Position numbers and translations under genes: made by a program
Shown: piece by piece, positions 31,996 to 55,747 of the stretch
Layout of the letters: each line of letters opens with the position of its first letter
Numbering within the stretch: position 1 is the stretch's first letter
Source of the DNA: an uncultured Planctomycetota bacterium
GTDB taxonomy: Bacteria > Planctomycetota > Planctomycetia > Gemmatales > Gemmataceae
Direction: 5' to 3'
DNA length: 64,000 nucleotides
NCBI GenBank assembly: GCA_963784995.1
Contig: CAWATZ010000006.1
Span: forward strand, 8,853 to 72,852
Notes under the pieces: model-generated
The model's input: only the letters and a program-made list of their open reading frames with translations
Databases searched by the model: none
What the model was told of the DNA's origin: nothing

Positions 31996-33595
31996 ATGAG
32001 CTGGTTGAGCAAATTCTTCGGAAGGTCCCCGGACCCCCTGAAGCCACCCCCCGGCACCGTTCCGGCGACCCTGTCCCTCGTGCCGGGGCAACTTTCCGTG
32101 CGGGTTTGCCGGCACAGCATCCCCAATGGTGCCGAACAAATCCCCTGCTGGACCTACGTTACAGACGGGCTCTGGAAACTCGGCCAGAAGGAGTTGATCT
32201 TCTCGCTGCGCCGCCGGCCGGAAGAGGAGCCCCAGGCCTTTCCGCAAGATCCAGTGCAGTTCTTCCTGCAAGTGCATCGCCTGGCCCAGGAGGGGCGGCT
32301 CGGTCGATGCCGGCGGACACACGTGCTTGCGCAGCCCCGCGGGCTTCCTGGGTACGACCGAGCTGACGGGATTCACTTACGTCCGGCCTGAGCTGCTCCC
32401 GGGAGTGGAGTTGCCTCCTCTGGACCGCGCCCTCACCGCGCTGCTGCTGACGAAAGAGGAGGCCGAGGTGGTTCAGACCCTTGGCGGCTACCGTCTGACC
32501 GCGCTGCTGGGAGACAGCACCCGCTACTACCCCTGTCCTCCCTGGTCGGAGCGCGGCCGGCGTCCGGTCCTCACCCCGCACGACCTGGCACAGAGCCTGC
32601 TCGGGAAGATGCCCCTGGCCGGTTGCCCGGCCGGCTTTGCCCGCATGTTCCTGCCGCCGCAGGCGCCGACTCCTCCGGGGGTGGACCGGACCCTGCCGGA
32701 AGTCGGCAAGCGCATCACGCTCTTCCTGCCCGAGGAGGTCAGGGCGCAGCTCCAGGAAGCATTGTCGCCCTTCCCCGAGAGCTGGGCCCTCGCCTTGCTC
32801 ACTCAGCCGGACCCGGAAGCGAACGTCCGCCTGGTCTGGCGACCGGGGGACCGGGAGATTCGGACCATCACGCCCCACCACAGTGACGGCAGTTGCCTGA
32901 CGGGCGGCTTTGTCGCGCTGGTGGCCGAGCCCTCGCTTCCCGAGGGAGCGCGGGTGGCCGAGGACGGCTTCCTGGCGGCGTTCGGCCCGACCAATCAGGC
33001 CCGCTTTCGGGAGGCCATCTCGACCGGACAGCCCTTCGTCCTGCCGCCCGCTCAACCGGACCTGGCCGAGTTCTGCCTGGAATGGCTGCCCGCGAAGCCT
33101 TCGCAAGCGCCGGCAAGCCCGGCAGGGACCGAGGCGCCAGACAAGACGGCAGCATTTTTCGTCCATCAGATCATGCTCTATCAGCCGGACGAAGTGCTGC
33201 GTCAGCGTGTCGGCAACGTGTCGATCCTGGGTTCCTTCTTGAAGCGCGTGGAGGAGGAAGCCAATCAGTTCTGGTCCGCGCTGCCGCCTGGGGAAAGCCG
33301 GGCCGTGCTCCTGGTCGTGGCCCTGCGACCCGGAGGCCGCAGCCGCTTCTGGCCGGAGGAGAATCCCCCCGGTCTGGATCGAAGGTCAGTGGAAGAAGTC
33401 GTGGCGCGGCTGCAACGCTTGCCGCCGCCCCTGGTGCATAGCGGGCCGGTGGCCGTGGCGCTCCAGGCGTCGCTGTGGTCCCAGGGCGGCAAGCCCGGAG
33501 GCTGGCCCTTCATCCCCACGGAATGGCAGCAAGCCTGCGGCCAGGAGAACCTCCTGGTCCCCGATGGCGTCCTGAAGATCGTCTGGCCCGAGTAA
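31996..33595 (+). CDS. hypothetical protein (apparent frameshift near 32296-32310; may instead be two genes)
   Basis: MSWLSKFF start with SD. The frame with protein-like composition switches at ggggcggctcgg. The C-terminal 35 aa plus 3' flank are repeated at 42003-42127. Confidence 0.45.
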
Positions 33596-33685
33596 GCTCC
33601 GTCCCTTTGCGGAACCAGGGAGTTGAGATAGAATCATCCAGACCCGGAGAGGTGCCGGAGCGGCCGATCGGGCCGGTCTCGAAAA
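33581..33685 (+). repeat. direct repeat X: last 15 bp of gene, intergenic region, and 5' 40 nt of tRNA-Ser (attL-like)
   Basis: About 97% identical to 48512-48616. Identity ends exactly at the anticodon loop (..ggtctcgaaaa). Confidence 0.7.
33646..33685 (+). pseudogene. truncated tRNA-Ser 5' half (acceptor 5' strand, D-arm, anticodon stem-loop only)
   Basis: ggagaggtgccggagcggccgatcgggccggtctcgaaaa, then diverges. Confidence 0.7.
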
Positions 33686-33770
33686 GCGATACCCAGGTTT
33701 TTCGCACCTCCCGCAAAACACGTCAAACCCCTGCAATTTCAGGGGTTTTCGCATTTCCCGGCTTTCTCTC

Positions 33771-34877: not shown

Positions 34878-34901
34878 CCGCTGAGAGGAAGTGGGTGGGG
34901 A

Positions 34902-35480: not shown

Positions 35481-35485
35481 GAGCC

Positions 35486-35761: not shown

Positions 35762-35766
35762 GGTCG

Positions 35767-36042: not shown

Positions 36043-36082
36043 CTGCCTGGTTGTACTGTGACTGCCGGGGTCTATTTGTTTG

Positions 36083-39024: not shown

Positions 39025-39045
39025 GTTGCGATTATACGCAAGGAG
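39025..39045 (-). promoter_or_regulatory. sigma70-like -10 box (gcgTATAATcgc on the minus strand) about 380 nt upstream of the kinase gene
   Basis: Shares the 11-mer tgcgattatac with a second site at 40566-40576 upstream of the DUF433/DUF5615 operon. Confidence 0.3.
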
Positions 39046-40544: not shown

Positions 40545-40556
40545 CAGTCAGCGGGC

Positions 40557-40814: not shown

Positions 40815-40865
40815 TGGACTTTGGATCCAGGGATCCCCCGGCCGGAAGCGGGGCTGAAACAGCCT

Positions 40866-41195
40866 TCAGAACACCGGAGGAGCCGGCCTGCCCGTATCGC
40901 TGAAGATCACCGCAAGGATGCCGTACACCGCGTATTCATCGGTGACCAGGAAGCGAAAACGGTGGCCCCGACCCATCTCGGCATCGAAGATCGACAGTTC
41001 CACCCAGAACATGGGAGACCCGGGAGCCACTCGGAGAGACTCGTCCAGTCGGTAGTGGTCCCCATTCGTGCCGAGCATCGCCCGCAGGTTGGCAAAGATC
41101 CCTTCGCGGGCCAGATCCGAGAGCCCATCGAAATTCTGGTACGTACGCCTCGACATTCTCTCTGACGTCAACGGTGCAGGCCATGCCGGGCTCAC
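40866..41195 (-). CDS. hypothetical protein
   Basis: Real start possibly MSRRTYQNF at 41156. 4-bp overlap with the upstream gene. Confidence 0.4.
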   Translation of the reverse strand: MSPAWPAPLTSERMSRRTYQNFDGLSDLAREGIFANLRAMLGTNGDHYRLDESLRVAPGSPMFWVELSIFDAEMGRGHRFRFLVTDEYAVYGILAVIFSDTGRPAPPVF

Positions 41196-41767
41196 TTCCG
41201 CTTCTTTTGGAGGTCGGCAAGGATCTCGTCCACGGAGCGGAAACCTTCGCGGTTCAGCGGATCGCCCATTCGTGGAATGGAAGCAACGTCAACGGCTGGC
41301 AAGGGAGTCTCGGCCCAGATGCGGAGTGCTTCGGCTTTCTGCAGCAACCCCCGCATTGCCTCCTGGCGATCTTTCAGATGCAGAAACTGCTGAGCCATTC
41401 GTTGATCGAGGGAGGCAGATTGAAGCAGCAAAAGAGTGGCCTCCACACTCTTGAAGATGCCCCGAATCCCCACCTCAACTTCCCGGCATTCCCGAAGCAA
41501 TTTGCGGTGTTCCATGCCCAGTGTCAGCTTGTCACGGAGAAACTCCCAGTGCCGCTCGGCCAGGTCGCTGAGAAGGAAACTGGCATGAATCATTTCCGTG
41601 GCAGCATCCGGCAGGAGAGGTTGCCTCCGACTGGCCTCCAGTTCGTTAGAAGTTCGCCGCAGATTGTCCTGGATCATCTGCGATACGAGTGTATCGATCA
41701 TCAGGTCAATCCTCCATTTGTGACGCCGGGAAGTATCTCCAGCCATCGGCAATCGTCTTGAGATCAA
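41192..41767 (-). CDS. hypothetical protein
   Basis: ORF with protein-like composition. Start possibly MIDTLV at 41701. Confidence 0.4.
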   Translation of the reverse strand: MISRRLPMAGDTSRRHKWRIDLMIDTLVSQMIQDNLRRTSNELEASRRQPLLPDAATEMIHASFLLSDLAERHWEFLRDKLTLGMEHRKLLRECREVEVGIRGIFKSVEATLLLLQSASLDQRMAQQFLHLKDRQEAMRGLLQKAEALRIWAETPLPAVDVASIPRMGDPLNREGFRSVDEILADLQKKRK

Positions 41768-42002
41768 CCTCGCTCACCGGCAATTATCCTGACCGTCACG
41801 GATTTTGGGGGAGTGCCAAAAGAGGGCCCGAAGGGACGGCGTGTGTTGGTGGCGTGTTGGCGGTGTCGCTTTTTTGTCATCGGTGGGGCAAGCACGGACA
41901 CGCCGGGGCGCCTCCTGGCCAGACCGCCAGCATTTTGCGCCGTTGGCGGTGTGGCGGCCTCACCCCTTGGGGCTCGGCGTTCCCTCCTGTGGTACGAGGG
42001 CC

Positions 42003-42127
42003 GCAAGCCCGGAGGCTGGCCCTTCATCCCCACGGAATGGCAGCAAGCCTGCGGCCAGGAGGACCTCCTGGTCCCCGATAGCGTCTTGAAGATCGTCTGG
42101 CCTGAGTAACCGCCGTCCCTTTACGGA
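42003..42127 (+). repeat. repeat Y: orphan copy of the last about 105 bp of gene 31996..33595 plus about 20 bp 3' flank
   Basis: About 94% identical to 33488-33614. Encodes ...GRKPGGWPFIPTEWQQACGQEDLLVPDSVLKIVWPE*. Confidence 0.65.
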
Positions 42128-42326
42128 AGAATTTCGGCCGCCAGCGATTTCCCGCCCAGGCAGGCCTCAAGCGGATCCACCCGGGCCAACAGGTGGCGAG
42201 CCAACTCAGGCCGGGTGCGGACTGCCTGTCGTGCCAGTTCGTTGTTGTCCGTCGTCATGCCGACTCCTCTGGGGATGCCGTCAATGGGAAAGTATCTGTG
42301 CAAGTCCGAAGATTTCGGACGGCGTG

Positions 42327-43280
42327 TTAGCATCCCTGGTGAGGCACTGCACGAACTTGAGGGCACGCATCAGAGTAGCCAGGAGTTCCGCACGGCTCGG
42401 GCGATGGGGTTGCCTGACTGTACTCCAGTGTCCGCCTGAGCAGATCGCAGACGACGACCCCCCCTTTGTTCTGCCGGACCTGCCGCCAGACCCGGTAGCC
42501 GGCCAGGATCGCCTTCTGCCACTCGTACAGTGAGCAGGATCGCACTTCCCTGTCGGACACAATCCCTTGAATGGTCTTTAGCAGCGGGTAATCAAGCGTT
42601 TGCACGCCATCGAGGTAGTCATGCTTGCGGGCGTAATCGTACACGATGGCGGAGATGGCTTCCTCCACGATCTTGGCCCTTGCCCCGTCCTCGACCTCGT
42701 CCACCTTCGGCTTGCTCTTCCGCTTCCGCTTCAGCAGCGACCGCATCATGGGAGACCACCCGAGTATGGCCGCGTGGGCGAGGTGGAACACGTCGTGGAA
42801 TCGGTAGCCGTCGTCCTCGTAAGCGTTGTCAGTCAATGGGTCCCCGATGGCCTTGTCCCCGAGCCAGCAGCGGACTTTCACCTTGTCCCCGATTCTTTCC
42901 TCCCTGATTAGTATCTCGAAACGTCGGGGGAGTTGCTCTTGATCGGGGGAGTCCTCATCGAACAGTCTGCTGGGTTCTGCCCCGCCGCTCGGCCAGCGGT
43001 TCTGAGTCTTCTTCAGGTTGGCCACAGCGACCTCACTCAGGTCCAGATCAAACTTGGTAGCCACGTCAGCGACATACCACAGCAGGTCGCCCAACTCCTC
43101 CGCCATCTGCTCCTTGAACAGCAGGTGGGCGTTCCCGTCCCTGAGATGTTTCTTGTACTCCGCCAGGAGCGTGCCAACCTCGCCGGCCAGCCCCAGCAGA
43201 GGGATCAAGATTCCCCTCTCGTCGTGTGCCGGCGACTGGTCCGTTTCTCCGGCCTTTAACTGGTACTCGCGGAAGTGCAT
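42327..43280 (-). CDS. MazG-family nucleotide pyrophosphohydrolase with about 200-aa C-terminal extension
   Basis: LKAGETDQ...LLGLAGEVGTLLAEYKK...MAEELGDLLWYVADVATKFDLDLSEV is the MazG EExxE/D core. Confidence 0.75.
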   Translation of the reverse strand: MHFREYQLKAGETDQSPAHDERGILIPLLGLAGEVGTLLAEYKKHLRDGNAHLLFKEQMAEELGDLLWYVADVATKFDLDLSEVAVANLKKTQNRWPSGGAEPSRLFDEDSPDQEQLPRRFEILIREERIGDKVKVRCWLGDKAIGDPLTDNAYEDDGYRFHDVFHLAHAAILGWSPMMRSLLKRKRKSKPKVDEVEDGARAKIVEEAISAIVYDYARKHDYLDGVQTLDYPLLKTIQGIVSDREVRSCSLYEWQKAILAGYRVWRQVRQNKGGVVVCDLLRRTLEYSQATPSPEPCGTPGYSDACPQVRAVPHQGC

Positions 43281-43348
43281 GTGTATTCTCTTGAGCAGTA
43301 GGTCAGGGCGACTAACTCCGACAGCGACTTGCACCACGTCTAGCCCTG

Positions 43349-44631
43349 TCACAACTTCAACGCTTGGGTCAGGTAAGCAGCTGCGGCAACAACGAAGCGG
43401 ACGGCCGCCTGCTGGTTGCCAAGTTGCGGCGCGAACCGCAGAAGGCCCAACCCTACAAGGAACAGCGGCACGAGGTACTCGCGGTCCCAGTCTGTCCCGG
43501 AAGGGAAGACCTCCGCTGCCTTCCGGCGGAGCCGCTGGATCAGATCGACGCGACCCTTTAGGTAGGCCCCCAGGTCCGCAGGGGGCGTCTGGTCCCAGGC
43601 GATCCAGGTGCTGAATGACTCGATCTCATCCCCGCGAACCTCGGTCCGGAGGGTCAAGAAGCGGAGATTGCACTCAAGCAGGACGAAGTCCTTCGCGATG
43701 TGCGCCTCTCTTGTGCCCACCCGAAGTCGATGATCGTCGGTGCCCCTCGGGTCTTGAGGATGATGTTGCCAGGGTGCAGGTCGCCGTGGATCGCACCCCG
43801 ATACAGACGGAACAGCTTGGGCCTCAGCTGTTCCACCACCCAGAGCGGGTTGACAGTCTGCCCGCCAGAAGTGAGGGCGAACTTCTCTCCGGTCTTACCC
43901 CAGACTTCGGCCCAGGCGTCACCCCATACCGTCCCAAGGCCTCTCAAGTACCACTCGTATTCCTTACCCACCTCCACCTCGTCGGCAGAGGCGGTCCCGA
44001 ACCGCCGGTGGAAGTTACCGAGAAGGTTGAAAGCGGCCTCAAACGTCGATCCCGCCCGGTCGTTGTCGCCATCTTTCAGAGGCTTGCGGAGGTCTTCGAC
44101 CTCGAACGCCGGGGCAGCCGTCCCCGCAGCGGGGCTGACGAGCGGTACGGAGCCTGTGGCAGAACAGATCGACCACAAGATCCTGTAACCGGTTTGATCC
44201 TCGTCGAAGAGGATGGGGATGGCGAAGTTGTCCTTGGAGTCGTAGGCGAACGGTTTGATGCTCAGGGCGTTCTTGTACTCATCGACAAGCTTGTCGGACT
44301 TGCTGCGGTCCATGGTTTTGACGACAAGCGGGTGCGAGCACAGGGTGCCCGGTTCCTCGAAGGAGAAATGGCCGATCAAGACCAGGCTCCCGCTCTTACC
44401 CTCCATCTGGCCGATGCGGCTGAGGGGAATGAGGGTCAGCCTGACGGCCTTGTCGTGCGAGTCTCGATACTCAGGCAGCCCGAGAGCGGGCCAGACCGCC
44501 TCCTGGAACCCCCAGACGGCCTCGGCCCCTTGCCCGCCCCGAATCTTCGCCATGAGTTGTTCCGCGGAAAGACGGATGGCATCCAGCCGGTCCGCTTCCG
44601 TGGCCTCAAAGTTCACCTTCAGGGACACCAT
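43349..44631 (-). CDS. aminoglycoside-phosphotransferase / protein-kinase-like fold kinase (frameshift at about 43660-43690 in a G-run)
   Basis: IHGDLHPGNIIL...IIDFGW is an APH/ChoK catalytic loop plus DFG. Frame switches between ORFs 43654..44631 and 43349..43720 at ttcgggtggg. Confidence 0.6.
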
Positions 44632-44652
44632 GTTCAGTTCCTTGGGTGGTGC

Positions 44653-46419
44653 TTACCTTGGCCGCTCATCTTGTCGTTGGGCCGCCTCGACAGCCTCATT
44701 GATGCCCCATTTGGGCGGATACCAGAGGCTGAGTGGATTCGAGTGGGGCCTGTAGGTCTGTTTGATCCGCGTCCGGCCGCTGATTCCCTGGACCTCAGGG
44801 TGGGCCAACCGGGCGTACTTGTCGGTTTCGCAGAATAGGTTCTGGCAGTCGATCAGCTGCAAGGGGCGACCCCACAGGTCGCGGAACGGGATGCCCAGTC
44901 GCTCCAACTCCCGCTCTTGGTTGTCGGCCACCCAGCGGATGATGTCGGCCTCGCTTAGACCGCCCAGGCTGGTGAAGCACTTGCGGATGCCGTCGCGAGC
45001 CCCCGGCCCCGGCACCACGAACTGCATCTCCGTGAAGTTGGTGAGGGTGCTGTAGTTCAGATCGGTGACATACTGATAAGCCAGGAAGTCGCCGATCATC
45101 GGGTAGGAGACGACCAGCTCGAACGCTTGCCGCATGTTGCGGCAGGCAGCGATCCGCCTGGGCAGGGCATCTTGCATCATTTTCTGGAGCAGGCGGAGAT
45201 GGCTGCGGTGCTTGCGGTGGTTCTCATAGTCACCTGAGCCCGAAGGCATGATGTACGCCCCGGAATAGATTGCCTGCCCCCTTTCCAGGGCACGGTCGAA
45301 CACCGCCGCATACCGTTCGAGGTCGAAGTCCGCATACCGGGGCGTACCCAGCTCCTGCTCCAGCATCTCCCAGGTCTCAACCTTGTTGAACAGCTTGAAC
45401 ATGATCGTGCGGAAGAACACCTCTTCCGCCGCCTGGTCATGCTGGTAGATGACCTTGCGGATCAGGTACTGGCTGACCCGGTCAGAGGCCCGGTAGGCGT
45501 TGCAAAACTTGTACCGGGCAATGATTGGGTCGCTCGTCAGGGGCTGCATTCCCTCCAGCCGGCGGAAGAAAACCTCCTGCCGTTCCGCCGCGAACTTCCA
45601 GTAGGTACTGTACACCTCCGATGGCCTCGCTGGAGCCATCGGACAGATGACCTGCGGCGGTGGCCGTTCCTCAGGGGTTGGCCTGGCGGGCGGTGACTCT
45701 GCCTTGGCCGACAGCAGCGAGAACAGGTCGGGCACCTCGCGTGTCGGCGTGGTGCGGCGGGTGGTCGCCTTGCCCGCTCTCCCCGACCTTCTGGGGGCGG
45801 CGACCCGGTAGCGGACGCCGTCGATTGCCTCGATGGCTAGACGAACGGCGTCGGCAACCGTCCCCTCGTTGTCAAGGCGGACGACGCAGTGGCGGGCCTC
45901 CTCCGCCAAGGCCAGCTCATGGTAGGCGGGCAGCAGCTTCGACCCGAGGTCCGTCGGCTCGCTCTCCTCGCAACGGGAGGGCCGCTGGACAAGGAACACC
46001 ACCGCCGGCTCCACGTTGCCCCACTCCGCTCTCTCCATGGCGATCATGGCGTCAAGCGTCTTGGGAGCAGCCCCGCTGGCAAGGCCGTAGGCCCAGGTGG
46101 ACCACCAGAAACGGTCCAGCACCACCCAGCGGCCTCCGGTGAGGGCCGGCAGGATTCGGCCGGCGATGGCGGCGAGGTGAGCCGCGACGTGCAACAGTTG
46201 GAGGCTGGCTGGGGGGATGTTCGCAATACCGAACAGGCCGGGGTCGTGGTGCAACTGGTAGACGTGCCAGCCCAGTGTGCCGGGCTCGCGGCCGGGGAAT
46301 GCCAGCAGGTCACAAGGCGTGCCGCGGCCGCTCAGCACAGCAGCGACCTCTTTCGCCAGGGTGCTCTTGCCGACTCCGTCAGGCCCCTCGAAGACGATCA
46401 ACTTACCCGGCGTTGCCAT
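44653..46419 (-). CDS. thymidylate-kinase-like P-loop kinase fused to about 400-aa domain of unknown function
   Basis: LIVFEGPDGVGKSTLAKE (Walker A) and VVLDRFWWSTWAY (Tmk DR[Y/F] lid motif). C-terminal 400 aa with no recognised motif. Confidence 0.7.
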   Translation of the reverse strand: MATPGKLIVFEGPDGVGKSTLAKEVAAVLSGRGTPCDLLAFPGREPGTLGWHVYQLHHDPGLFGIANIPPASLQLLHVAAHLAAIAGRILPALTGGRWVVLDRFWWSTWAYGLASGAAPKTLDAMIAMERAEWGNVEPAVVFLVQRPSRCEESEPTDLGSKLLPAYHELALAEEARHCVVRLDNEGTVADAVRLAIEAIDGVRYRVAAPRRSGRAGKATTRRTTPTREVPDLFSLLSAKAESPPARPTPEERPPPQVICPMAPARPSEVYSTYWKFAAERQEVFFRRLEGMQPLTSDPIIARYKFCNAYRASDRVSQYLIRKVIYQHDQAAEEVFFRTIMFKLFNKVETWEMLEQELGTPRYADFDLERYAAVFDRALERGQAIYSGAYIMPSGSGDYENHRKHRSHLRLLQKMMQDALPRRIAACRNMRQAFELVVSYPMIGDFLAYQYVTDLNYSTLTNFTEMQFVVPGPGARDGIRKCFTSLGGLSEADIIRWVADNQERELERLGIPFRDLWGRPLQLIDCQNLFCETDKYARLAHPEVQGISGRTRIKQTYRPHSNPLSLWYPPKWGINEAVEAAQRQDERPR

Positions 46420-47230
46420 TGTCCCCTCCCGCCCCGGTTTCCTGCTGTACGAGCTGGGCCTGCCCCTGGAGCAGCCCTTGCAGGTCCGCTGCGAACACCT
46501 GCAACTGGGTCTTCGCCACGCCTCCCAGACGGGCCGTACTGATGTTGCAAGTGAACTGCGTCAGCTCGCGGTTCACCTGACCGGCAACAAATTGACCGAG
46601 CCGGTATAGCCCCAGGTAGTTCCCGTACCCCTTCTCGAAGAGGAACTGGATTGGGTAGGAGGCATTGATGGCCAGCCCACCCCGGTCGAGCGGGGTAAAG
46701 GTGACATGGTGCAGACAAGGGAAGCCGCGGCGACGTTGTCGGGTGTGGTCCCTGGCGGGGTCGAACACGTTCGCCACAAAGGCCGTTGGGCGGCGGACGC
46801 CCTCCCCCCAGATCCGGATCAGGTGCTCAATCTGGTTACCATCTACGGGGCGGTCGCCTCCGAAGGCGATCATTCGCTCGAAGTACTGCCCGTTCCGATT
46901 TTCACGCCGCCGGAGCAGCCTGGGCAGCATCCGCTGATACCTGCCATACAGGGCGTGCCGGTCGCTGCTCCGTTCCCAGAGATTGCTGGGGAAGATGGTG
47001 TTGGCGACCGTGTGGCACTCGTACAGGCCAAGCCGCACAAGCTCTTGGTCCAGGCGGTTCCGGATGCTCGCGACCTCAGCCGGCACGCCGTCCTCCATAC
47101 CGGTAATCTCGATGAACAGCGGGGAGATCCCATTCACGCCCCGCCGCATGAGAGCCAGGAAAGCCCTGGCCCACGCGATGCTCAGGTTGGACTCACGGAT
47201 CAAGGGCATCATCGTCCTCCTCTGGCTCAT
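46403..47230 (-). CDS. thymidylate-synthase-fold protein (ThyA / dNMP hydroxymethylase superfamily), divergent
   Basis: DGNQIEHLI, RRPTAFVANVFD and RRRGFPCLHHVTF align with ThyA DGRHIDQI / SRRIIVSAWN / LAPCHAFFQFYV, including the catalytic Cys. Weak overall similarity. Confidence 0.5.
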   Translation of the reverse strand: MSQRRTMMPLIRESNLSIAWARAFLALMRRGVNGISPLFIEITGMEDGVPAEVASIRNRLDQELVRLGLYECHTVANTIFPSNLWERSSDRHALYGRYQRMLPRLLRRRENRNGQYFERMIAFGGDRPVDGNQIEHLIRIWGEGVRRPTAFVANVFDPARDHTRQRRRGFPCLHHVTFTPLDRGGLAINASYPIQFLFEKGYGNYLGLYRLGQFVAGQVNRELTQFTCNISTARLGGVAKTQLQVFAADLQGLLQGQAQLVQQETGAGGDNGNAG

Positions 47231-48068
47231 GTCGGAATCGCGCCCTGCCGGCGAAGCCCTGCCGCGACACGCGAACGAAGCTGGCCCAGCCGGTTTCGGG
47301 GTTCAGCAGCCGCCCCCGGCCCGGCTTTCTGCCCCGGAAGATCCTGTCGAACAGGAAGCTGGTGTCGATCATCACACAGGCCCCTTCGTGGACGACACCT
47401 GGCGGGCACAGGATCGCGTCCCCAGCCTGGATGTCGATGGCACGGTCCAGCCAGTTGTCGCCCGCCACGACGAGGTGATGTGGGCAGTCGGCCCCCAGCA
47501 GACCCGACTTGATCGTCCTGGGTGCCACCTTCTGAAGGGCCAGGGCACGGGTGCGTTCGAGCAGGCGGAGGTTGAGCCACACGTGGGTGACGAGGGCTTC
47601 GTAGCCCACGCCCAGCCAGGTAGCCACCTCGTAAACCTGCTCAGCCGTCGCGTCTCCCGGAGAACATCCGCGTAGCTCGAAACCCCGAACCACGGCCGGT
47701 CTGGGCATGAGCAGGAAGCCGCTGAAACACTCGGCCAGGAACTCCTCCTCGCTGTCTTCCTGTCGCTCGCTGTCATGCACCTCGTCGATCCTGGAGCCGT
47801 GACCATAGACATGGTGTCCCAGCTCATGGCCGCCGGTATAAGCCTGCCGCCCCGGCGGTCGCAGGCTCGAGATGACCATGCTGGGGCCGGGAGTCTTGAC
47901 GTACGTGCCCTCCAGGCGGGGGATGGCTTTGAACCAGACATCGACCCCCATCCCCTCCGCGAGATCGTAGACGCAGAGGGGCACGTCAAGGCCGAGCCCG
48001 GCATCACGGCGGACGCGACATGCACGAGTCAGGGCGTCCCTGGCCAACCGCCGCTTGTCGAGGGTCAT
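47193..48068 (-). CDS. ImmA/IrrE-family metallopeptidase (DUF955) with C-terminal extension
   Basis: HELGHHVYGH HExxH motif. 4-bp overlap with the XRE gene. Confidence 0.75.
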   Translation of the reverse strand: MTLDKRRLARDALTRACRVRRDAGLGLDVPLCVYDLAEGMGVDVWFKAIPRLEGTYVKTPGPSMVISSLRPPGRQAYTGGHELGHHVYGHGSRIDEVHDSERQEDSEEEFLAECFSGFLLMPRPAVVRGFELRGCSPGDATAEQVYEVATWLGVGYEALVTHVWLNLRLLERTRALALQKVAPRTIKSGLLGADCPHHLVVAGDNWLDRAIDIQAGDAILCPPGVVHEGACVMIDTSFLFDRIFRGRKPGRGRLLNPETGWASFVRVSRQGFAGRARFRHEPEEDDDALDP

Positions 48069-48412
48069 CCCTCCTCCTTCCGCTTGAGGCTTGCAAGGAG
48101 CTGCATCAGCTGGTCAAGGTCTTCCTGCCTCATGGTACTCAGCTTGCGGGCTGCCATCTCATAGCGGACTCGGCTCATGTCGCCGGCATCACCATCGAGC
48201 AGCCAGGCAACGCTCACGCCGTAGGTGTCGGCCAGCGTAGCCAGCTCCTCGGCGGAAACGCTCCGACGGCCAGCCTCCATCTCGGAGACCGACGGGCGGT
48301 GGAGCCCCAGTAATCGGGCGACCTGACCCTGCGTCAGGCCAGCCTGTTCGCGGGCAGCCTTGAGCCGGGAGGCGATTGCCATCCTCTTCTCGCTGGCGTC
48401 CACGGCAACCAA
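48065..48412 (-). CDS. XRE-family helix-turn-helix transcriptional regulator
   Basis: LTQGQVARLLGLHRPSVSEMEAGRR HTH. Confidence 0.8.
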   Translation of the reverse strand: MVAVDASEKRMAIASRLKAAREQAGLTQGQVARLLGLHRPSVSEMEAGRRSVSAEELATLADTYGVSVAWLLDGDAGDMSRVRYEMAARKLSTMRQEDLDQLMQLLASLKRKEEG

Positions 48413-48434
48413 TCCTCAATATGAGTGTAATAGT

Positions 48435-48456
48435 AATCTTACCGCTAGGTAAGATT
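48435..48456. promoter_or_regulatory. palindromic operator candidate aatcttacc-gcta-ggtaagatt in an AT-rich promoter region upstream of the XRE gene
   Basis: Perfect 9-bp inverted repeat 23-44 bp upstream of the XRE start. Confidence 0.45.
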
Positions 48457-48511
48457 ATCTTACACGAGGTGTAGGCAACAAGTCAAGGGCAATCGGCCGT
48501 CCTGGCCGAAC

Positions 48512-48616
48512 GTCTGGCCCGAGTAAGCTCCGTCCCTTTACGGAACCAGGGCGTTGAGATAGAATCATCCAGACACGGAGAGGTGCCGGAGCGGCCGATC
48601 GGGCCGGTCTCGAAAA
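48512..48616 (+). repeat. direct repeat Z (attR-like), partner of 33581-33685
   Basis: See repeat X. Confidence 0.7.
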
Positions 48617-48663
48617 CCGGTGTGGCAGCAATGCTACCGAGGGTTCGAATCCCTCCCTCTCCG
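48577..48663 (+). tRNA. tRNA-Ser (anticodon CGA), class II with long variable arm
   Basis: GGAGAGG acceptor. Anticodon stem-loop CCGGT-CTCGAAA-ACCGG. Variable arm TGTGGCAGCAATGCTACC. T-arm GAGGGTTCGAATCCCTC. 3' CCTCTCCG. No encoded CCA. Confidence 0.9.
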
Positions 48664-48695
48664 CTTTTTCCACACCGGCGGCTAATCTCCGCTCG

Positions 48696-48826
48696 CCCTT
48701 TCTTCCGAACGCTCCAAAAGAGCGGCAGCGACTGCCCGTCCGTCAGCGCCGTGGGCCGGCCCTGGTGGTTCTCCGCGACTGCGTCCAGGAGAATGTCCAG
48801 CGCCTGAAAGATGGTCGCGTGCAAGT
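48696..48826 (-). pseudogene. orphan, about 85% identical copy of the 3'-terminal about 130 bp of the DUF1501 gene (stop codon mutated TAG to TGG)
   Basis: Aligns to 51117-51246. Encodes HATIFQALDILLDAVAENHQGRPTALTDGQSLPLF versus the intact gene's HATIFQALGIPLDAAAEDHQGRPVALTDGRPLPLF*. Confidence 0.65.
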
Positions 48827-48948
48827 GTGAAAGGGGACTCATGTATTTTCACAAACCGATGTAAATAGATGACCAACCTAGACGACAAGCGGATGTACGA
48901 GGTGCTGGAGTACCTTGAGCGTGGACGGCGCTGAGCTGTGGATGCGAC

Positions 48949-49890
48949 TCAGAACGGGATTTCGGACTCGTCAGATGGCTTCGGCGCCTGGCACCCTTGT
49001 GCCGAGGACGGAGTAAACCCCAATGCGGGTGCCAGTGTCCCTTCGCGGAGGTATCTCGCGTAGCGCCGGTATTGATACGCTAGATTCGAGTTGATGATAA
49101 TCTGGCACCACTCGCGGAGGTTGTCGCTCAGTTCCGAGTTACCGCAAATCGTGGACAAAGACGGCACACCGTCCATCAGGAGGGCGGCAAGCTCGTTATA
49201 GAGGTCAGCTCTTCCGGAGCCTCGAACAGACCTGGCATAAATGGCGAACCGGCCCTTGTGCTGCTGCTTCGACTTGTTCACGAGGTCCAGGAGCGATTCC
49301 TTGGGAAACACATACGGGTCAATGATAGCCCGCTCCACATGACTTATGGAGAGCCTTCCGGATGTGACCGTACAACTTACCTCAGGGTCGGCAGCCTGCG
49401 GGTACTTCTCTTGCAGTTTTGCCCTGAACTTGGTGAACGTGCTTTTCGGATACCCCTCCTCGGCTGGGTGTTCAAAAAGAAAATCGACCTCTTCTATCGT
49501 TTTCAACGCCTCCGAGTCCCGTCTGAAACCCGCTGCGCCGGCAGATCGCAAGCAGACCGCGACATCAGTAGCCTCCAAGAGCGCCTCCGGGCGTAGCTGT
49601 AGTGCAATCGGCCCGTATGGATTGGGAACGCCCTTGCCGCCGTTTGCAAACGTGCGGCCAAAATCAGACAGGTTCACGAATACCTTGTCCCACACGCAGT
49701 TGGTGTGGTCCGTCCCATCCGTCTCGAAGGCCGTGAAATGCTGTTTGCCCACTTCCAGGCAGGCCCGCGATGGAATCCCGCCGACTGCCAAATATGACGA
49801 AAAATCTGCGAGTTGGCAGGCGTGATAAAGCGACGCACGCCGGCTTGTCAGCAGGTTTACGAGCTTGGCAATCTGTCCCTCTCGGATCAT
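48949..49890 (-). CDS. hypothetical protein (lower GC)
   Basis: 313-aa ORF with protein-like composition. GC about 55%. Confidence 0.5.
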   Translation of the reverse strand: MIREGQIAKLVNLLTSRRASLYHACQLADFSSYLAVGGIPSRACLEVGKQHFTAFETDGTDHTNCVWDKVFVNLSDFGRTFANGGKGVPNPYGPIALQLRPEALLEATDVAVCLRSAGAAGFRRDSEALKTIEEVDFLFEHPAEEGYPKSTFTKFRAKLQEKYPQAADPEVSCTVTSGRLSISHVERAIIDPYVFPKESLLDLVNKSKQQHKGRFAIYARSVRGSGRADLYNELAALLMDGVPSLSTICGNSELSDNLREWCQIIINSNLAYQYRRYARYLREGTLAPALGFTPSSAQGCQAPKPSDESEIPF

Positions 49891-49926
49891 GTTGCCGTTC
49901 TCAGGGCGGGTTCGGAGATAAGGATG

Positions 49927-50826
49927 TCACAAGGTCCGGGGGACGACCTGTAACCCGCAGACTTCAGTCTCCAGATGTTGCCGCAGGGCCGTTGCCTCTG
50001 TACTCAGCAGTTCTGCAACAAGAGGCCGAAGGGTCTGCCACAGAGTTTGGGCCGTCTCTGGCGTAAGACCCACTTGCTTGAGCCGCCACCGAGTTTCTCG
50101 CTCCCACCAATAGGAAGGCGAACTGTCGTTGGCGAGGGCACTCTCGCAGTAGAAACTCACCCACATTACTTGGCGTACTGGCAGCTTCAACCTCTTTGCG
50201 ACCTCCCGCAGAGCCGTCTTGCCGGCAGGGGTATGCTTATCCAGGGCGACCCAATAAGGTAACGCGCTATTGGTGGATTCGCTGCGGGATACTACGGGAA
50301 CGTCATGAGTGACGGCGAGGTAAGCCGCGGCCTGCATGAAGGCCCGGTCCCAAGGCCACCCCCCACCCTTGTAGGCTTTGTAGGCCGCGTCAACGAGCAT
50401 CCTCTGTTCGTCAGCCAACTCTCGCTTTAGCACCCAGGGCCAGAAATCTTTGGGCCTCTGAATCGCATTCAGCACGATCCGAATGTCTCGGTCTTCAGGG
50501 CATCCATCGAAGACCGTTTCGTCATCTTTCGAGAGAGCGTATGCCAGAGTTCCCAGCCCGGCTGCATCCTTAACCTTTACATGCCGGGCAACGCACCCCA
50601 GGGCCTCAACTGACTTCTCCGGGTCCGGCTTTTGGGGTAGCAGCCCACCCAGCGGCCAGCACTCCTCAAACGTGATGACGGCAGCTCTGCTCCTGAGCCA
50701 AGTGCCATCGCCGATCTCCCGAAGATGGGCGGCAACCTTGCCGATGAGGGCTTCTTCTCCGCGCCTTACCGCCTTCTGAAGCAGCGACCGGCATACCTGG
50801 TGCGTGTCGGCGCTTGGCTTTCTCAC
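49927..50826 (-). CDS. hypothetical protein (lower GC)
   Basis: GTG start with SD aaggag 6 nt upstream. Confidence 0.45.
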   Translation of the reverse strand: MRKPSADTHQVCRSLLQKAVRRGEEALIGKVAAHLREIGDGTWLRSRAAVITFEECWPLGGLLPQKPDPEKSVEALGCVARHVKVKDAAGLGTLAYALSKDDETVFDGCPEDRDIRIVLNAIQRPKDFWPWVLKRELADEQRMLVDAAYKAYKGGGWPWDRAFMQAAAYLAVTHDVPVVSRSESTNSALPYWVALDKHTPAGKTALREVAKRLKLPVRQVMWVSFYCESALANDSSPSYWWERETRWRLKQVGLTPETAQTLWQTLRPLVAELLSTEATALRQHLETEVCGLQVVPRTL

Positions 50827-51134
50827 GGTTACTCCTTCTGCCCTTGGTAGAGTTAGCGGGCAATGCGAAGCCAGCCGCCGGTTCAAGCTGACCTGGACTT
50901 TACGGTGCGCTGACTTGCAGTTCAACGACAAACAGCGATTTTTGTCTACAGGCCAACAATACAAGTGTATAGAAAGTCAGAAAGCCGAAGAAGCCCAGCA
51001 GCCAGATGAGACTCCTCAACCGTCCGACAGCACGATTCTGCCGGTGCGCTGGAGGGAATGCGGGCGGTTGGGTCGGGAACGCAATTGGTTCCCAGATGGC
51101 GGCTACCCCTCACCCACCCTTTCTTCCCAGCGCG

Positions 51135-52535
51135 CTAAAAGAGCGGTAACGGCCGGCCGTCCGTCAGCGCCACAGGCCGCCCCTGGTGGTCCTCCGCGGC
51201 TGCGTCCAGGGGAATGCCCAGCGCCTGAAAGATGGTCGCGTGCAGGTCGTTGGGACCACAGGGATGCTCGTGGGGATAGGCCCCGATGCGGTCCGAGCTG
51301 CCGTACACCTGCCCGCCGCGAATGCCGCCACCCGCCAGGGCCACCGAATAACAGTACGGATAGTGGTTGCGGCCCGTGCCCATGATCTTCGGCGTGCGGC
51401 CGAATTCCGTGAGCCAGACCACCAGCGTCTGGTCCAGCAAACCGCGCGCGGCCAGGTCGTCGAGCAGGGCGGCGCTGGCCTGCTCCAGCGGCGGCAGCAG
51501 GTCCCGTTTCAGCCGATTGAAGTTGTCGCCGTGCGTGTCCCAGTGATCGCCGGCGGAGCCGTTGAGGTCGCCCGCGGCACAGATCACGGTCACCAGCGGC
51601 ACCCCCGCTTCCACCAGCCGGCGGGCCAGCAGCACGCTGGTGCCGCACACGTGGTCGCCGTACCGGTCCCGGACCCGGGGGTCTTCGCGGTCCAGGTCCA
51701 GAGTGGCCCGCACCCTGGGACTGAGCAGCAGGTCCAGGGCCCGCTCCTGGAAGTGCTGATAGCCGCGAACGATGGGGAGGTCGGGCAGCGGCTTTTCGAG
51801 GCTCTGCACCAGGGCCGCGCGGTCGCGGATGCGGTTACTGTCCACGTCCGGGGCCGGCTTGAGGACCAGGGCGCCCAGGTCGCGGGAGACGCCGCCGTAG
51901 GGCCGGCCGCGGTCGGGCCGGAGCAGCAGCGGTGCGTACGCCTGACCGAGCCAGCCGGGACCATCGCCGGCCTGCAAGGTGTTGTTATCGACCAGCGGAT
52001 AGGGGAGCTGCACCGCACCCGGCAGGCCCCGCGGCGGCCGGCGCAGCCGGGCGACCATCGAGCCGAGATTGGGCCAGTCCTGTACCGACGGCGCCAGGTT
52101 CGCCGCCACCTCGGGCTGCGGAGGCGGATGGCCCGTGAGGTTCCAATACATCCCCTTGCCGTGAGCCGAGCACTGGTGGTGGATCGAGCGAATGACGGCC
52201 AGCCGGTGCATTTGCCGGGCCAGCAGAGGCATGTGCTCGCCGACGCGAATCCCGGGAACGGAGGTGGCGATGGGCTTGAACTCCCCGCGCACCTCGGCCG
52301 GGGCATCGGGTTTGGGGTCCCAGGTGTCCACGTGGCTGGTTCCTCCCCAGCAAAACAGCACGATGCACGACCGGGCCTTGCCGATTCCGCCCGCCCGGCC
52401 GGTGCTGCCAGCCGCCCGACTGTGCAGCGCCAGGAACTCGGGCAACGACAGGCCCAGCAAGCCAAGACGCAGCAGTCCGCGGCGGCTGAGCGTGTTGTCC
52501 CGGAGTGATTCGGCATTTCGCAGCTTCGACGTCAT
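51135..52535 (-). CDS. DUF1501 domain protein (sulfatase-like, Tat signal)
   Basis: Tat signal SRRGLLRLGLLGL. CWGGTSHVDTWDPKP. C-terminal GPNDLHATIFQALGIP. Confidence 0.85.
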   Translation of the reverse strand: MTSKLRNAESLRDNTLSRRGLLRLGLLGLSLPEFLALHSRAAGSTGRAGGIGKARSCIVLFCWGGTSHVDTWDPKPDAPAEVRGEFKPIATSVPGIRVGEHMPLLARQMHRLAVIRSIHHQCSAHGKGMYWNLTGHPPPQPEVAANLAPSVQDWPNLGSMVARLRRPPRGLPGAVQLPYPLVDNNTLQAGDGPGWLGQAYAPLLLRPDRGRPYGGVSRDLGALVLKPAPDVDSNRIRDRAALVQSLEKPLPDLPIVRGYQHFQERALDLLLSPRVRATLDLDREDPRVRDRYGDHVCGTSVLLARRLVEAGVPLVTVICAAGDLNGSAGDHWDTHGDNFNRLKRDLLPPLEQASAALLDDLAARGLLDQTLVVWLTEFGRTPKIMGTGRNHYPYCYSVALAGGGIRGGQVYGSSDRIGAYPHEHPCGPNDLHATIFQALGIPLDAAAEDHQGRPVALTDGRPLPLF

Positions 52536-52741
52536 CGTCTCGCCCCCTTCAAACCGTGAACAGCGCTGCCAGTCCATTGTGCTGGAGTGCCTGGAGGTTT
52601 CGCTTCCGAAAAGTCTAGAATATCTCAGTGGCCGGGAGAAGAGCCAGGGAAATTATCCCGAGTTCTGGGTCCTGCCCGCTCATCCTCCCGAAGAAAGAGT
52701 CCGCGAGCAAACCGGAACACGAGTGATTGGTGCCGTGAGCC

Positions 52742-53821
52742 ATGACAAGAACCAGCACGCAACCGGGCCTCGACCCCCTGAGCCAGCTGATCGCCGAGGC
52801 AGTTCAGCAGCCCGACCCTGTCCTTTCTAACCTTCAGGTAACGTACGCCCATTACCAGCTTTCTCTGGCGCTGCAGCAAGTCGTTGGCCCTGAAGGGGGC
52901 GCCAATTTCCACACCTGGGCCACGTGGGGATCGCGCAAGGCCGGCGTGACCATCCGCCAGGAAGGACTGGAGCGGGCCCTGCGGGAAGTGACCCTTCTCT
53001 CCTCCTGCACTGGCATGGCGGCTGGCTTGCTGCTGGGATTGGTCCTGTGGCGCTGGCTGCCGTGGTGGATCGTGCCGGGGCTGTCCGGCGTGGGGGCGGC
53101 CTGTGCGGCCTGGACAGGCCGACGGTGGCTGATCCTGGGCAGACGCCGGGCTGCCGAGTGCATGCTGGCCGGCAACCGGACTGTACTCGAAGACATCGGC
53201 GGCCAGACGGCCCGCTTTATTGCCTGGTTTCACCAGGCCAGGGGGCCTGACCCTGCCTCGTTCGCTCGCTTCCTGGAAGGCTTTCGAGGCGGCAAGACCG
53301 AGGAGGGAGGACAGGACCTGCTGCGGCGGGCGTTCACCCACTATCACCGGGCCGCTTTGACTGACTCCGTACAGGTCAAGCAGCAGGCCGTCTTTCTGGC
53401 CAACTGTCTGGCCATCCTGCACGAACACGTACGTTTACAGCCTTACATTGCTGGCGCCCTGCCCTGGATCGTGCGGCGCTGCGTCACCTGCCGGCTGCTT
53501 CGTTACGACGTCGGACCGCTGCGCCTGGCCGTGGGCGACGACGTGCCCAGCCTGGCCGGCCTGGATTATCCCGAATCGCTGCGGACGCTGACCGACCCGG
53601 AGCTGGTGGAGCTGCTGTTCGGCCGTGACGGCCTGGACCGTGGCGGCAACACCCTGGCTGGGACTGGAAGCAGCGACTGGACCCGTCTGGACCAGCGCAT
53701 GAGATACGTGGTCAATCTCTTCCGCGCACTGCACCTGCACCCGGACGTGTTCACGGCCCCGTATACGGCCAGCCAGTTCGAGCAGATTCGCGCCGGTCAG
53801 GTCCCACCAGGCCCGTTGTGA
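52742..53821 (+). CDS. hypothetical membrane protein
   Basis: 359-aa ORF with 2 TM helices. Divergent from the DUF1501 gene. Confidence 0.5.
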   Translation: MTRTSTQPGLDPLSQLIAEAVQQPDPVLSNLQVTYAHYQLSLALQQVVGPEGGANFHTWATWGSRKAGVTIRQEGLERALREVTLLSSCTGMAAGLLLGLVLWRWLPWWIVPGLSGVGAACAAWTGRRWLILGRRRAAECMLAGNRTVLEDIGGQTARFIAWFHQARGPDPASFARFLEGFRGGKTEEGGQDLLRRAFTHYHRAALTDSVQVKQQAVFLANCLAILHEHVRLQPYIAGALPWIVRRCVTCRLLRYDVGPLRLAVGDDVPSLAGLDYPESLRTLTDPELVELLFGRDGLDRGGNTLAGTGSSDWTRLDQRMRYVVNLFRALHLHPDVFTAPYTASQFEQIRAGQVPPGPL

Positions 53822-53878
53822 TGGCACGGCACGTCGTCGGCTGTCGCGATCAAGGCAAGCAAGACTGAACCAAGCGGA

Positions 53879-54655
53879 TTAAATGTCGTTGGTCTTGCTA
53901 ATGCGCGGAGCGATCAACCCAAGGAATGCGCGCACGTTCGGAATTCGAGCCACCTCGACTAAAACCCAGTTATTATTAACTCCGGCTTTCGATATTTTGA
54001 CAAACCCATTCTCCACCTTCAGTTGACCTACTTCACCCCAAGGAAGCTCTTCTTGCCGATAGCCCAGGCCGGTGGGGTTAAGCGTAAAGTCCCCAAACGC
54101 TACTGTCTCGCCTCGTGCCAAAGCTTGTTGTAAAACCGGGAACCTGCGGCTCGTGACCTCTTGCTGAATTGTCTCCCCTAAGACCGCCATGTCGCGGAGA
54201 GGCCCTTTCACGATCACACTTTCCCCGTCGTAGCGGCGGAGAGTAAACCGCTCTTCGCTGTGGTTGTATGAGCCATTGATGAACACGTGCTTCACGTCCT
54301 CGGTGACTGACTCAATGTCGTCCCATCGGCAGGCAGTCGCCTGACTACCCACAATAACGACCAATCCATCCCGAAACACCAACACGCGCCGGCGCATCCT
54401 GAAGAGAGCGACTACCATCCCCACTACAAAAAACGAACAAAGTACTCCAACAATAATCAGAAAAGCCGTTCGATCACTATTGGCTGGCATCTTTCGAGCT
54501 GCCAAAGGCGTCAAAACAGCAAAGATCAACAGCAAGAGGAGCGGATACACCAAGCCGGTGCGTGTATGCCAAGAGGCGCCGCCCGCGTGTTCTGCTACAA
54601 GGGGACCGAGAGATTGCGTCACATCAGGTAGATCGTTCACCGATGGCGTGGCCAC
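53879..54655 (-). CDS. hypothetical membrane protein, low-GC (about 48%) singleton
   Basis: Two N-terminal TM helices followed by a soluble domain. Confidence 0.55.
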   Translation of the reverse strand: MATPSVNDLPDVTQSLGPLVAEHAGGASWHTRTGLVYPLLLLLIFAVLTPLAARKMPANSDRTAFLIIVGVLCSFFVVGMVVALFRMRRRVLVFRDGLVVIVGSQATACRWDDIESVTEDVKHVFINGSYNHSEERFTLRRYDGESVIVKGPLRDMAVLGETIQQEVTSRRFPVLQQALARGETVAFGDFTLNPTGLGYRQEELPWGEVGQLKVENGFVKISKAGVNNNWVLVEVARIPNVRAFLGLIAPRISKTNDI

Positions 54656-54691
54656 GTGCGTTACCTTGTTGGGTTCAGAAGGCCTCTGATG

Positions 54692-55747
54692 TTACTTCTT
54701 GGCGAGGATGAGATCCACCAGCCAGCACCCACGTACGTGCGTCGCTGGCCCGCGGCCGTGGTCAAGCAACTGTTCGTCCGCGCACCCGGCATCCTCGAGC
54801 GCGTCCGCCAGGATCGGCAGCTGGTCAAATGCGGACAACTCATACGCGCCACGAGCGAGGGCGACGACCTGGGACGTTCGCCACCCCGGATCGAACACCG
54901 GGGGTGGCCGGAACGGATTCCCGAACAGGTCGCGCAGGAACTCCGCCTGAGCCGCCTCCTCTGGCCCATCGTCCGGCGGGGCGGGCTGACAGCGGCGGGC
55001 ATACCTCGCCCAGCGGCTGGCCTCGACTGCGGCTGTCCCCGCGTCCTCGGCGACCACGGCCGCGGCGGCAAGCGCGAATGCTCGGAGGAGGCTGCTGGCC
55101 TGGGAACTCGCTGCTGGCCTCATCCGGTGTCGTGCCAGATCCAATCTGTCCGCGGCTGTGGCGGAATCGGCGACTCGTTCGGCGGCCGCTACCGCTGACC
55201 GGCTCCACGGATCGTCCGAGAGGTCCCAGATCCTGCGGAAGCACGCGCATCCGAACAGACGCAGCTTCCGATCGCTTCCCCGGCCCAGCAAGTGCGCCAC
55301 CATCTGACCTGGATTGGCGCTGGTGAGCCATGCTGCTTCGTTCATCGGCCTCCGGCGCTCGAACGCAGCGGCCCGCTCGCGGGCCTGTTGCTCCAGCCCC
55401 GCTGCCAACCCGGCTTGACCGCTTGCCCGCTCCCATAACTCGCCTTGTACCCGGACAGCCTCCGGCGGGTATTCGACTGACCGGCCGTTCTCGACCGCCA
55501 GGCACCCCTCCTCGCGGGCCAGGCGGTACGCGAACTCGATCACTTCCTTCGTCAGACCGCCCGCCGGCGCCCACCGGCAGCGGGCGTATCCGTCCTGCAC
55601 TCGGACAAACTCGGCCATGCCGGGCGGGTACTCAGCGAGAAGCCGGGCAATCCGCTCCGGGTCGATGGGCCGAGCGACCGCGAGGTTGCTCGAACTGACC
55701 GTGGCGGAGTTGAAGTGCCCAACCTGAGTGTAATGGATGAAGCTCAT
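54692..55747 (-). CDS. hypothetical protein with planctomycete/myxobacterial TIGR02996-like C-terminal tail
   Basis: ...QLPILADALEDAGCADEQLLDHGRGPATHVRGCWLVDLILAKK. Confidence 0.5.
   Translation of the reverse strand: MSFIHYTQVGHFNSATVSSSNLAVARPIDPERIARLLAEYPPGMAEFVRVQDGYARCRWAPAGGLTKEVIEFAYRLAREEGCLAVENGRSVEYPPEAVRVQGELWERASGQAGLAAGLEQQARERAAAFERRRPMNEAAWLTSANPGQMVAHLLGRGSDRKLRLFGCACFRRIWDLSDDPWSRSAVAAAERVADSATAADRLDLARHRMRPAASSQASSLLRAFALAAAAVVAEDAGTAAVEASRWARYARRCQPAPPDDGPEEAAQAEFLRDLFGNPFRPPPVFDPGWRTSQVVALARGAYELSAFDQLPILADALEDAGCADEQLLDHGRGPATHVRGCWLVDLILAKK

Follow-up and report, generated by a model that had tools for sequence, protein, structure and literature searches.

A two-gene islet without a recombinase, bracketed by two diverged copies of a DUF1501 gene end, beside a tRNA-Ser gene in an uncultured Planctomycetota bacterium

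How does a gene come to have a second, decaying copy of its own 3' end on the far side of two other genes? The question is raised by a 64-kb stretch of DNA (the window; 64,000 nt, positions 8,853 to 72,852 of contig CAWATZ010000006.1, assembly GCA_963784995.1) from an uncultured planctomycete of the family Gemmataceae, in which a DUF1501 gene and a tRNA-Ser gene face each other across a small insert, here called the islet. The islet is the familiar scar of a small integrase-less integrative islet and no new kind of element. It is tentatively read as non-autonomous and similar to a cis-mobilizable element (CIME): by one reciprocal crossover it would have imported a replacement DUF1501 end and displaced the native one, with the recombinase acting in trans or since lost.

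Two copies of the DUF1501 end were delimited by repeat finding, MAFFT and BLAST (Table 1). The intact copy (I) terminates the working gene; the orphan copy (O) begins 13 bp past the end of the tRNA gene. They align without gaps over 150 nt with 125 identical positions (83.3%), at a spacing of 2421, and matched each other at BLAST E-values of 1e-38 to 3e-41 within the window. No third copy of the 150-nt repeat was returned by self-BLAST of the 64-kb window. The homology ends sharply on the in-gene side (48826/51247) and fades on the outer side. The DUF1501 stop codon TAG, which is CTA on the plus strand, is replaced by CCA (TGG) at 48714-48716 of the orphan. This altered stop had already been recognised in an initial annotation made from the sequence alone, and the repeat described there was recovered, at 150 rather than about 130 nt and 83% rather than about 85% identity. 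The orphan was also correctly placed downstream of the tRNA, although the gap of 33 bp given for it had to be shortened to the value above.

Between the copies lie 2,271 bp (48827-51097) with a GC content of 0.52-0.60 (0.52-0.54 in the spacers), against 0.70 in the DUF1501 body; the two repeat copies are host-like at 0.65 and 0.69. The only two genes in the insert, A and B, are co-directional, and the lower GC reported for them earlier was reproduced (0.57 and 0.60). A foreign origin of the segment is supported by this composition and by the occurrence of the gene pair at about 50% amino acid identity in several phyla and many contexts. The stretch upstream of B is presumably the promoter region of the B-A module itself. 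An Rfam scan of 48300-51400 returned the tRNA alone above the gathering score, and promoter and terminator scans gave nothing above expectation.

Recombinases were searched for with Pfam, NCBIfam, PHROGs and PADLOC over the islet, both segments of the island upstream of the tRNA (S1 and S2, described below) and the open reading frames (ORFs) of the window that were scanned. None of these gave an integrase, a transposase or any other recombinase. The islet is therefore not an autonomous integrating element, and this candidate was rejected. The initial annotation had proposed an element that integrates into the 3' end of a protein-coding gene and carries its own replacement end; the foreign insert and the crossover anatomy were retained from that proposal, and autonomous integration was dropped. 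A and B were also rejected as unrecognised recombinases, since A was modelled with an ADP-ribosyltransferase (ART) fold and B as helical and MgsA-C-like. The tRNA 3' end was rejected as the integration site because the repeat holds no tRNA sequence. What is present is the 150-nt repeat, the intact DUF1501 gene and the orphan end expected of an element at a gene 3' end, with no tyrosine or serine recombinase gene inside, as an integrase-driven element would have. A repeat with a 27-nt identical block at its sharp boundary, and no recombinase or transfer genes, matches the anatomy by which CIMEs are defined (PMC5704250).

The coding parts of the two copies differ at 15 sites, which fall on the three codon positions as 5/6/4 and of which 8 are non-synonymous. 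These differences were polarised with three relatives. Nine are derived in the orphan, mostly by G to A or C to T, and four conserved residues have been replaced there, all through such changes (IPL to ILL, ED to EN, RP to QS). On this pattern the orphan is a decaying pseudo-end. The intact copy has a further five derived differences, and three of these are synonymous GC-to-AT changes (CCC to CCT, and CTG to TTA, which counts for two); where the intact copy has TTA and CCT, the relatives and the orphan have CTG/TTG and CCC/CCG. Among leucine codons, TTA accounts for 1.2% in 19 host genes and for none of the 58 in the DUF1501 body, and the I-type end reads ...GIPLDAAAEDHQGRPVALTDGRPLPLF*, with TTA. 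These codons weakly suggest that the end of the working gene once resided in a lower-GC background.

The 37 nt after the stop are 73% identical between O and I, and 22-35% identical, which is chance level, in the closest relatives. Because this shared post-stop sequence is absent from the relatives, both copies derive from the DUF1501 locus seen in the window, in the host's own or a close lineage. In a search of 5.8 billion sequences, the closest DUF1501 proteins were 76-83% identical, and their loci (L129, L130/131 and L132) have other neighbours and no tRNA-Ser. GTDB representatives showed at most 73% amino acid identity and no tRNA-Ser synteny; the 90% cluster has a single member, and no empty site was found among these relatives. 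In both gene-end copies (51147-51166 and 48724-48736, minus strand), the stop codon is also overlapped by a short GC hairpin with CCGCTCTTTT behind it. This terminator-like pattern at the DUF1501 ends was not above shuffle expectation.

The longest run of identity between O and I is a block of 27 nt, CCAGCGCCTGAAAGATGGTCGCGTGCA, separated by 3 nt from the sharp boundary on the in-gene side. In permutations, a run so long and so near either repeat end came up in 1.3% of cases (P = 0.013). Only 8 identical nt are found at the outer boundary. In two comparison loci the longest identity run likewise lies at a repeat end (35 nt in L071, P = 0.038; 28 nt in L107, P = 0.025).

Flanking repeats were tested in ~45 loci with the B-A module and were found in only four. 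Since most of these loci are without the repeat, the duplication belongs to particular insertion events and not to the module, and the module was rejected as a generator of duplications. In the soil contig L002, the B-A module is 80.6% identical at the nucleotide level (window 50927..48946; BLAST) and lies downstream of mnmE. About 3.6 kb past mnmE is an orphan mnmE end, made up of the last 32 nt (91%) and 60 nt from ~400 nt upstream; it is degenerate, with a 305-bp internal deletion (2796-3194 versus 6786-6873). The module there is bracketed, as in the window, by an intact host gene end and an orphan, at a different target gene. SGI1 also targets mnmE/trmE, and ICESt1 is found at fda. At L107, B-A lies in a 3.5-kb islet with 124-nt flanking repeats that are 87% identical. 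A 2,265-bp Logan contig (L001; run ERR11523662) covers 48641-50905 and matches the islet of the window at 99.9% identity. One of its ends is inside the 3' part of the tRNA and the other is 22 bp short of the limit of L002 homology (50927). Strains that differ at the islet edges may have split the assembly graph at these ends, or coverage alone may explain them.

A crossover could be mapped in one analogue. L071 and L072 are near-identical contigs (98.5%) that form a filled/empty pair (L071 10643-13499 versus L072 10643-10831). L071 alone has a 2.5-kb AAA_15 islet after atpC, with 176-nt flanking copies that are 90% identical and no integrase. Its proximal copy follows L072 until 13 nt before the atpC stop, and the last four codons then come from the islet. 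The distal orphan is chimeric: the inner ~140 nt are foreign (13324-13466, 87% to L072), and the outer part is identical to L072. Relative to the empty site, the copies are reciprocal chimeras, and the pair shows directly that an integrase-less islet can bring a homeologous gene end and recombine reciprocally. In L073, compared with L071, the entire atpC is the 87% homeologous version. Both L071 and L072 also carry a B-A pair between atpG and atpD in the F1Fo ATP synthase operon (7055-8897), 48 bp before atpD and without a flanking repeat.

For the window, the tentatively preferred course is as follows. Circular incoming DNA would carry the cargo together with a ~150-nt homeologous copy of the DUF1501 end, which would come from the same locus in a related lineage. 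A Campbell-type single crossover would then join the resident 3' coding end of DUF1501 to the carried copy, most likely inside the 27-nt block (48797-48823 = 51218-51244). The working gene would now end in imported sequence, from 51098 to ~51217. The native end, displaced to a position beside the tRNA, would since have decayed and lost its stop. Three weak lines point to this geometry of imported intact end and displaced native orphan: the 27-nt block, the decay of the orphan and the rare codons in the intact copy. The reading as a whole is further supported by the L071/L072 pair, by the bracketing in L002 and by two more insertions at the same tRNA-Ser junction. As the catalyst, a site-specific recombinase that acted in trans or has been lost is slightly favoured over host RecA, because the identity blocks abut sharp repeat boundaries in three independent islets and because the anticodon stem of the tRNA is where the upstream repeat stops.

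Several observations weigh against this course of events. No recombinase gene was found in anything scanned in the window, and no recombinase family recurred beside B-A among 101 neighbour ORFs at 24 loci. At 150 nt the repeats are long, and they are homeologous, whereas integrase-driven elements typically have short, near-identical attachment (att) repeats. Some ~35 other B-A loci have no bridging repeat. The 27-nt block encodes HATIFQAL, the most conserved C-terminal motif of the DUF1501 protein, and coding constraint rather than a crossover could lie behind its identity. L071, the only mapped crossover, has a geometry opposite to the one favoured for the window.

The same topology would arise if host RecA recombined a patch-bearing circle with the chromosome, using the 27-nt block as the only identity that is long enough; islets would then spread among related genomes by excision at their flanking repeats and re-integration through the patch. 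This is a serious rival, if a less likely one. No recombinase was found in any of the islets examined (window, L002, L107, L071, L111 and L122), which fits it, as do long repeats of 83-93% identity in place of short, identical ones. Related modules are moreover anchored on different genes (DUF1501 versus mnmE), which is unexpected under a fixed att specificity, and the wholly 87% version of atpC in L073, compared with L071, suggests variable exchange end points. Against host RecA, 150 nt at 83% identity is a very inefficient substrate, the source of the first patch is left unexplained, and the placement of the longest identity run against a sharp repeat end in three independent islets is predicted by a site-specific core but not by RecA. 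The upstream repeat also stops at the tRNA anticodon stem, which Williams is reported to have described in 2002 as a classic integrase crossover position. A further scheme with host recombination only, in which integrase-less islets perpetuate themselves by excising via their own repeats and re-entering via the captured gene-end patch, is regarded as improbable. If true, it would describe a distinct mode of spread, open to small toxin or defence islets, that uses a 27-35-nt core and a 100-200-nt one-sided homeologous arm, with three events here and parallels in other phyla. As a speculative extension of it, the DarT-like enzyme encoded by A or its RarA-C-like partner might itself provoke the installing recombination.

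The geometry could also be reversed, with the crossover at the outer repeat end, around GGCGGCTA (48677-48684 = 51098-51105), in the spacer 30-37 nt past the DUF1501 stop and 13 bp from the tRNA. DUF1501 would then be wholly native and the orphan a non-functional passenger from the previous host of the islet. That is what was mapped in L071/L072, where the foreign segment is in the distal orphan and the crossover lies at the outer boundary of the proximal copy. The degenerate state of the orphan in the window (no stop; P to L, D to N and P to S at conserved residues) would need no decay after insertion, and the mnmE orphan of L002 carries its 305-bp internal deletion and loses homology at the stop codon. 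Reversal is nonetheless judged doubtful for the window: the outer boundary offers 8 identical nt against 27 at the other end, and it is the intact end that has the host-rare TTA and CCT, the orphan having host-typical codons like those of the relatives. The least credible account, held to be very improbable, is that the 150 nt were copied in situ, as a long target duplication or as a local tandem duplication into which the cargo was later inserted, and then diverged to 83%. The host-like GC of both copies, the non-coding 37 nt common to them and the even spread of differences over codon positions, as under free decay of one copy, agree with it. It would require ~17-27% neutral divergence during which the orphan was never deleted, and five changes, the rare TTA among them, are derived in the intact copy. 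No known insertion mechanism gives 150-nt target duplications, and in the L071/L072 analogue, where the flanking copies are 10% apart and the strains 1.5%, the second copy was imported. Homology-facilitated illegitimate recombination was rejected other than as an analogy, as it naturally yields deletions or replacements and not duplications, and does not fit the foreign inner part of the L071 orphan.

CIMEs, and the tandem accretion of elements of the integrative and conjugative or integrative and mobilizable type at target-gene 3' ends, are documented (PMC5704250). The islet resembles CIMEs in being without integration or transfer genes, in belonging to a stack of elements at one site and in leaving a restored target with a displaced fragment. 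It is unlike them in that no cognate integrase-bearing partner was identified, that the repeats at this junction are 122-216 nt long and 83-93% identical instead of short and near-identical, and that it is tiny (2.3 kb, two genes) and is known here from sequence alone. At Rhs and type VI secretion system effector loci, displacement of 3' ends has been attributed to homology-facilitated illegitimate recombination (PMC5361080). There too, incoming DNA anchored on a conserved part of a gene pushes the old 3' end downstream. The displaced ends at those loci are alternative toxin domains with immunity genes, whereas the one in the window nearly duplicates the housekeeping-type end that the gene still has, and the cargo there bears no relation to DUF1501. 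In islands at the 5' end of dusA, the gene is restored by element-borne sequence (PMC4482086). The island upstream of the tRNA is comparable in that it supplies or duplicates the promoter and the 5' half of tRNA-Ser, in reversed orientation; the dusA-type islands have their own integrase beside the att site, and none was found here.

Table 1. Coordinates of features at the tRNA-Ser/DUF1501 junction and in the island upstream of it (positions in the window)
Feature	Coordinates	Strand	Description
tRNA-Ser(CGA)	48577..48664	+	ARAGORN; Rfam tRNA 53.5 bits; left-hand host landmark of the islet, convergent with DUF1501
Copy O	48677..48826	-	Orphan, decaying DUF1501 end: 37 nt post-stop and last 113 coding nt
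Left spacer of islet	48827..48948	.	122 bp, GC 0.52; absent from the 80%-identical module of L002
Cargo gene A	48949..49890	-	313 aa, GC 0.57; predicted DarT-like ADP-ribosyltransferase fold and C-terminal helical domain
Cargo gene B	49927..50826	-	299 aa, GC 0.60; GTG start behind AAGGAG; all-helical
Region upstream of B	50827..50927	-	~80% conserved with L002 (BLAST)
Right spacer of islet	50928..51097	.	170 bp, GC 0.53; not common to L002
Copy I	51098..51247	-	Functional DUF1501 end: last 113 nt, stop TAG 51135-51137, and 37 nt downstream
DUF1501, target gene	51135..52577	-	480 aa, intact; Pfam PF07394, E 1.8e-87
Candidate crossover core	48797..48823	.	27-nt block identical to 51218-51244; encodes conserved HATIFQAL motif
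Copy alpha	33473..33688	+	Last 123 nt of 422-aa gene (32327-33595), intergenic/promoter sequence and tRNA-Ser nt 1-43; left island boundary
Copy beta	41987..42128	+	Orphan 3' end of 422-aa gene and 19 nt; 93% to 33473-33614; divides S1 and S2
Copy gamma	48498..48619	+	tRNA promoter and tRNA 5' half; 93.4% to 33568-33688; runs into intact tRNA
MazG_C	42327-43352		S2 cassette
TCAD9/APH-like kinase	43654-44631		S2 cassette
5-hmdU DNA kinase	44653-46419		S2 cassette; E 6e-110
Thymidylate-synthase-like ORF	46403-47230		S2 cassette; weak match

The island upstream of the tRNA is 14.9 kb long and was resolved by self-BLAST into two segments, S1 (33689-41986) and S2 (42129-48497), bracketed by the copies alpha, beta and gamma. 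An ORF at 41813-42109 is an orphan gene end and not a real gene. The duplicated part of the tRNA is its 5' half with the promoter, the reverse of the usual orientation of tRNA islands. A tRNA-targeting element with reversed orientation was reportedly described by Zhao and Williams in 2002. Two successive single-crossover insertions would reproduce the order alpha/S1/beta/S2/gamma exactly. The entry point would have been the tRNA anticodon stem for S1, which had an arm of 216 nt, and for S2 a site 19 nt beyond the stop codon of the 422-aa gene. Counting the islet, no fewer than three insertions are supported in ~300 bp of ancestral sequence; each left the same scar, and no recombinase was found in any. 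The junction is accordingly a genuine hotspot, as the initial annotation had proposed, and the case is stronger than could be seen there, the upstream island contributing two further insertions marked by three overlapping homeologous copies. The scar of an identical core with a homeologous arm, repeated in three stacked insertions at one tRNA junction, could be used to find such islets systematically.

S2 carries, at 42327-48412, a cassette of the thymidine-hypermodification type beside an ImmA/IrrE (Peptidase_M78, capP-like) and Xre pair. Genes of the thymidine-hypermodification type are usually associated with phages; this cassette sits in a chromosomal islet. S1 contains a DUF5615/DUF433 pair (39419-40544), probably a toxin-antitoxin pair, and the same family pair is found near B-A in L072.

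The cargo of the DUF1501 islet belongs to large and well-conserved families, with 346 database proteins for A and 1094 for B (E<=0.001). Members at ~50% amino acid identity came from sources named as Chloroflexota, Gemmatimonadota, Ktedonobacteria, Bacillales and Poribacteria. No Pfam, NCBIfam or PADLOC model was matched by A or B; PHROGs gave no match for A and one marginal match for B, and sequence searches of the PDB gave none for either. The AlphaFold2 (AF2) model of A had a mean predicted local distance difference test score (pLDDT) of 91. Its Foldseek matches (E 3e-6 to 5e-4) were DarT1 (8baq, E 3e-6), DarT (7omw), DarTG (7omu) and SopF (7dn8). For 8baq, 7omw and 7omu the Foldseek probability was 1.0, with target-length-normalised TM-scores of 0.61, 0.54 and 0.28, respectively. 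The predicted structure of A has a DarT-type ART fold, and its sequence lies outside the DarT family models (no Pfam family at E<=0.01, no PADLOC model, no PDB sequence match). Predicted H-Y-E residues of A include H23 and the Glu in the strand DPE[IV]SC. The N-terminal ~110 residues of B resemble the C-terminal domain of MgsA/RarA. B has no macrodomain or NADAR ADP-ribose hydrolase, which the partner antitoxin of DarTG would have.

The order of the two genes is well conserved. Where a fetched locus reaches far enough upstream, B almost always directly precedes A; in two loci it is convergent and downstream of A. Among the 101 neighbour ORFs of the 24 loci, the sole recurrent partner was a dGTPase-like HD plus HD_assoc protein (8 ORFs), encoded immediately upstream of B in L114, L120 and L122, those that were checked. 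This neighbour suggests a three-gene variant of the B-A system. Several phyla and many genomic contexts are represented among the loci with the pair, which was always chromosomal where found. A search of mobile-element databases for the cargo proteins had been suggested in the initial annotation; no match was obtained in PLSDB plasmids, INPHARED phages or IMG/VR viral contigs.

In its DarT-type ART fold, and in forming a compact operon of two genes within an islet that moves horizontally, the pair resembles DarTG (8baq, 7omw, 7omu; PMC11543638). The differences are that A has no Pfam or PADLOC DarT match, an additional 100 aa of length and a further helical domain, and that its partner B is helical and MgsA/RarA-C-like, is encoded upstream of the transferase and is no macrodomain or NADAR protein. 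Judged from fold and operon structure, A and B would act like a DarT-type ADP-ribosyltransferase toxin or defence pair, outside DarTG as defined. Its most plausible role is that of a toxin-antitoxin or anti-phage module. A literature search found no description of the B-A gene pair, which represents a widespread uncharacterised two-gene family and a reasonable candidate for either role. The islet is a clean example of how tiny toxin or defence cassettes are fixed beside core genes without mobility genes.

Other irregularities were seen elsewhere in the window. A further patch of low GC (0.54-0.56) at 53800-54800, just beyond the gene upstream of DUF1501, includes a DUF6585 gene (53879-54655, minus strand) and may be another small acquired segment. 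A 2.4-kb repeat of 82% identity (25586-27985 versus 29220-31620) comprises tandem paralogues over an adjacent 929-aa ORF, which was outside the domain scan, and an 855-aa TPR/AAA_16 gene. Two genes of ~1180 aa (8766-12011 and 12375-15764) form a second set of tandem paralogues, with 68-73% nucleotide identity.

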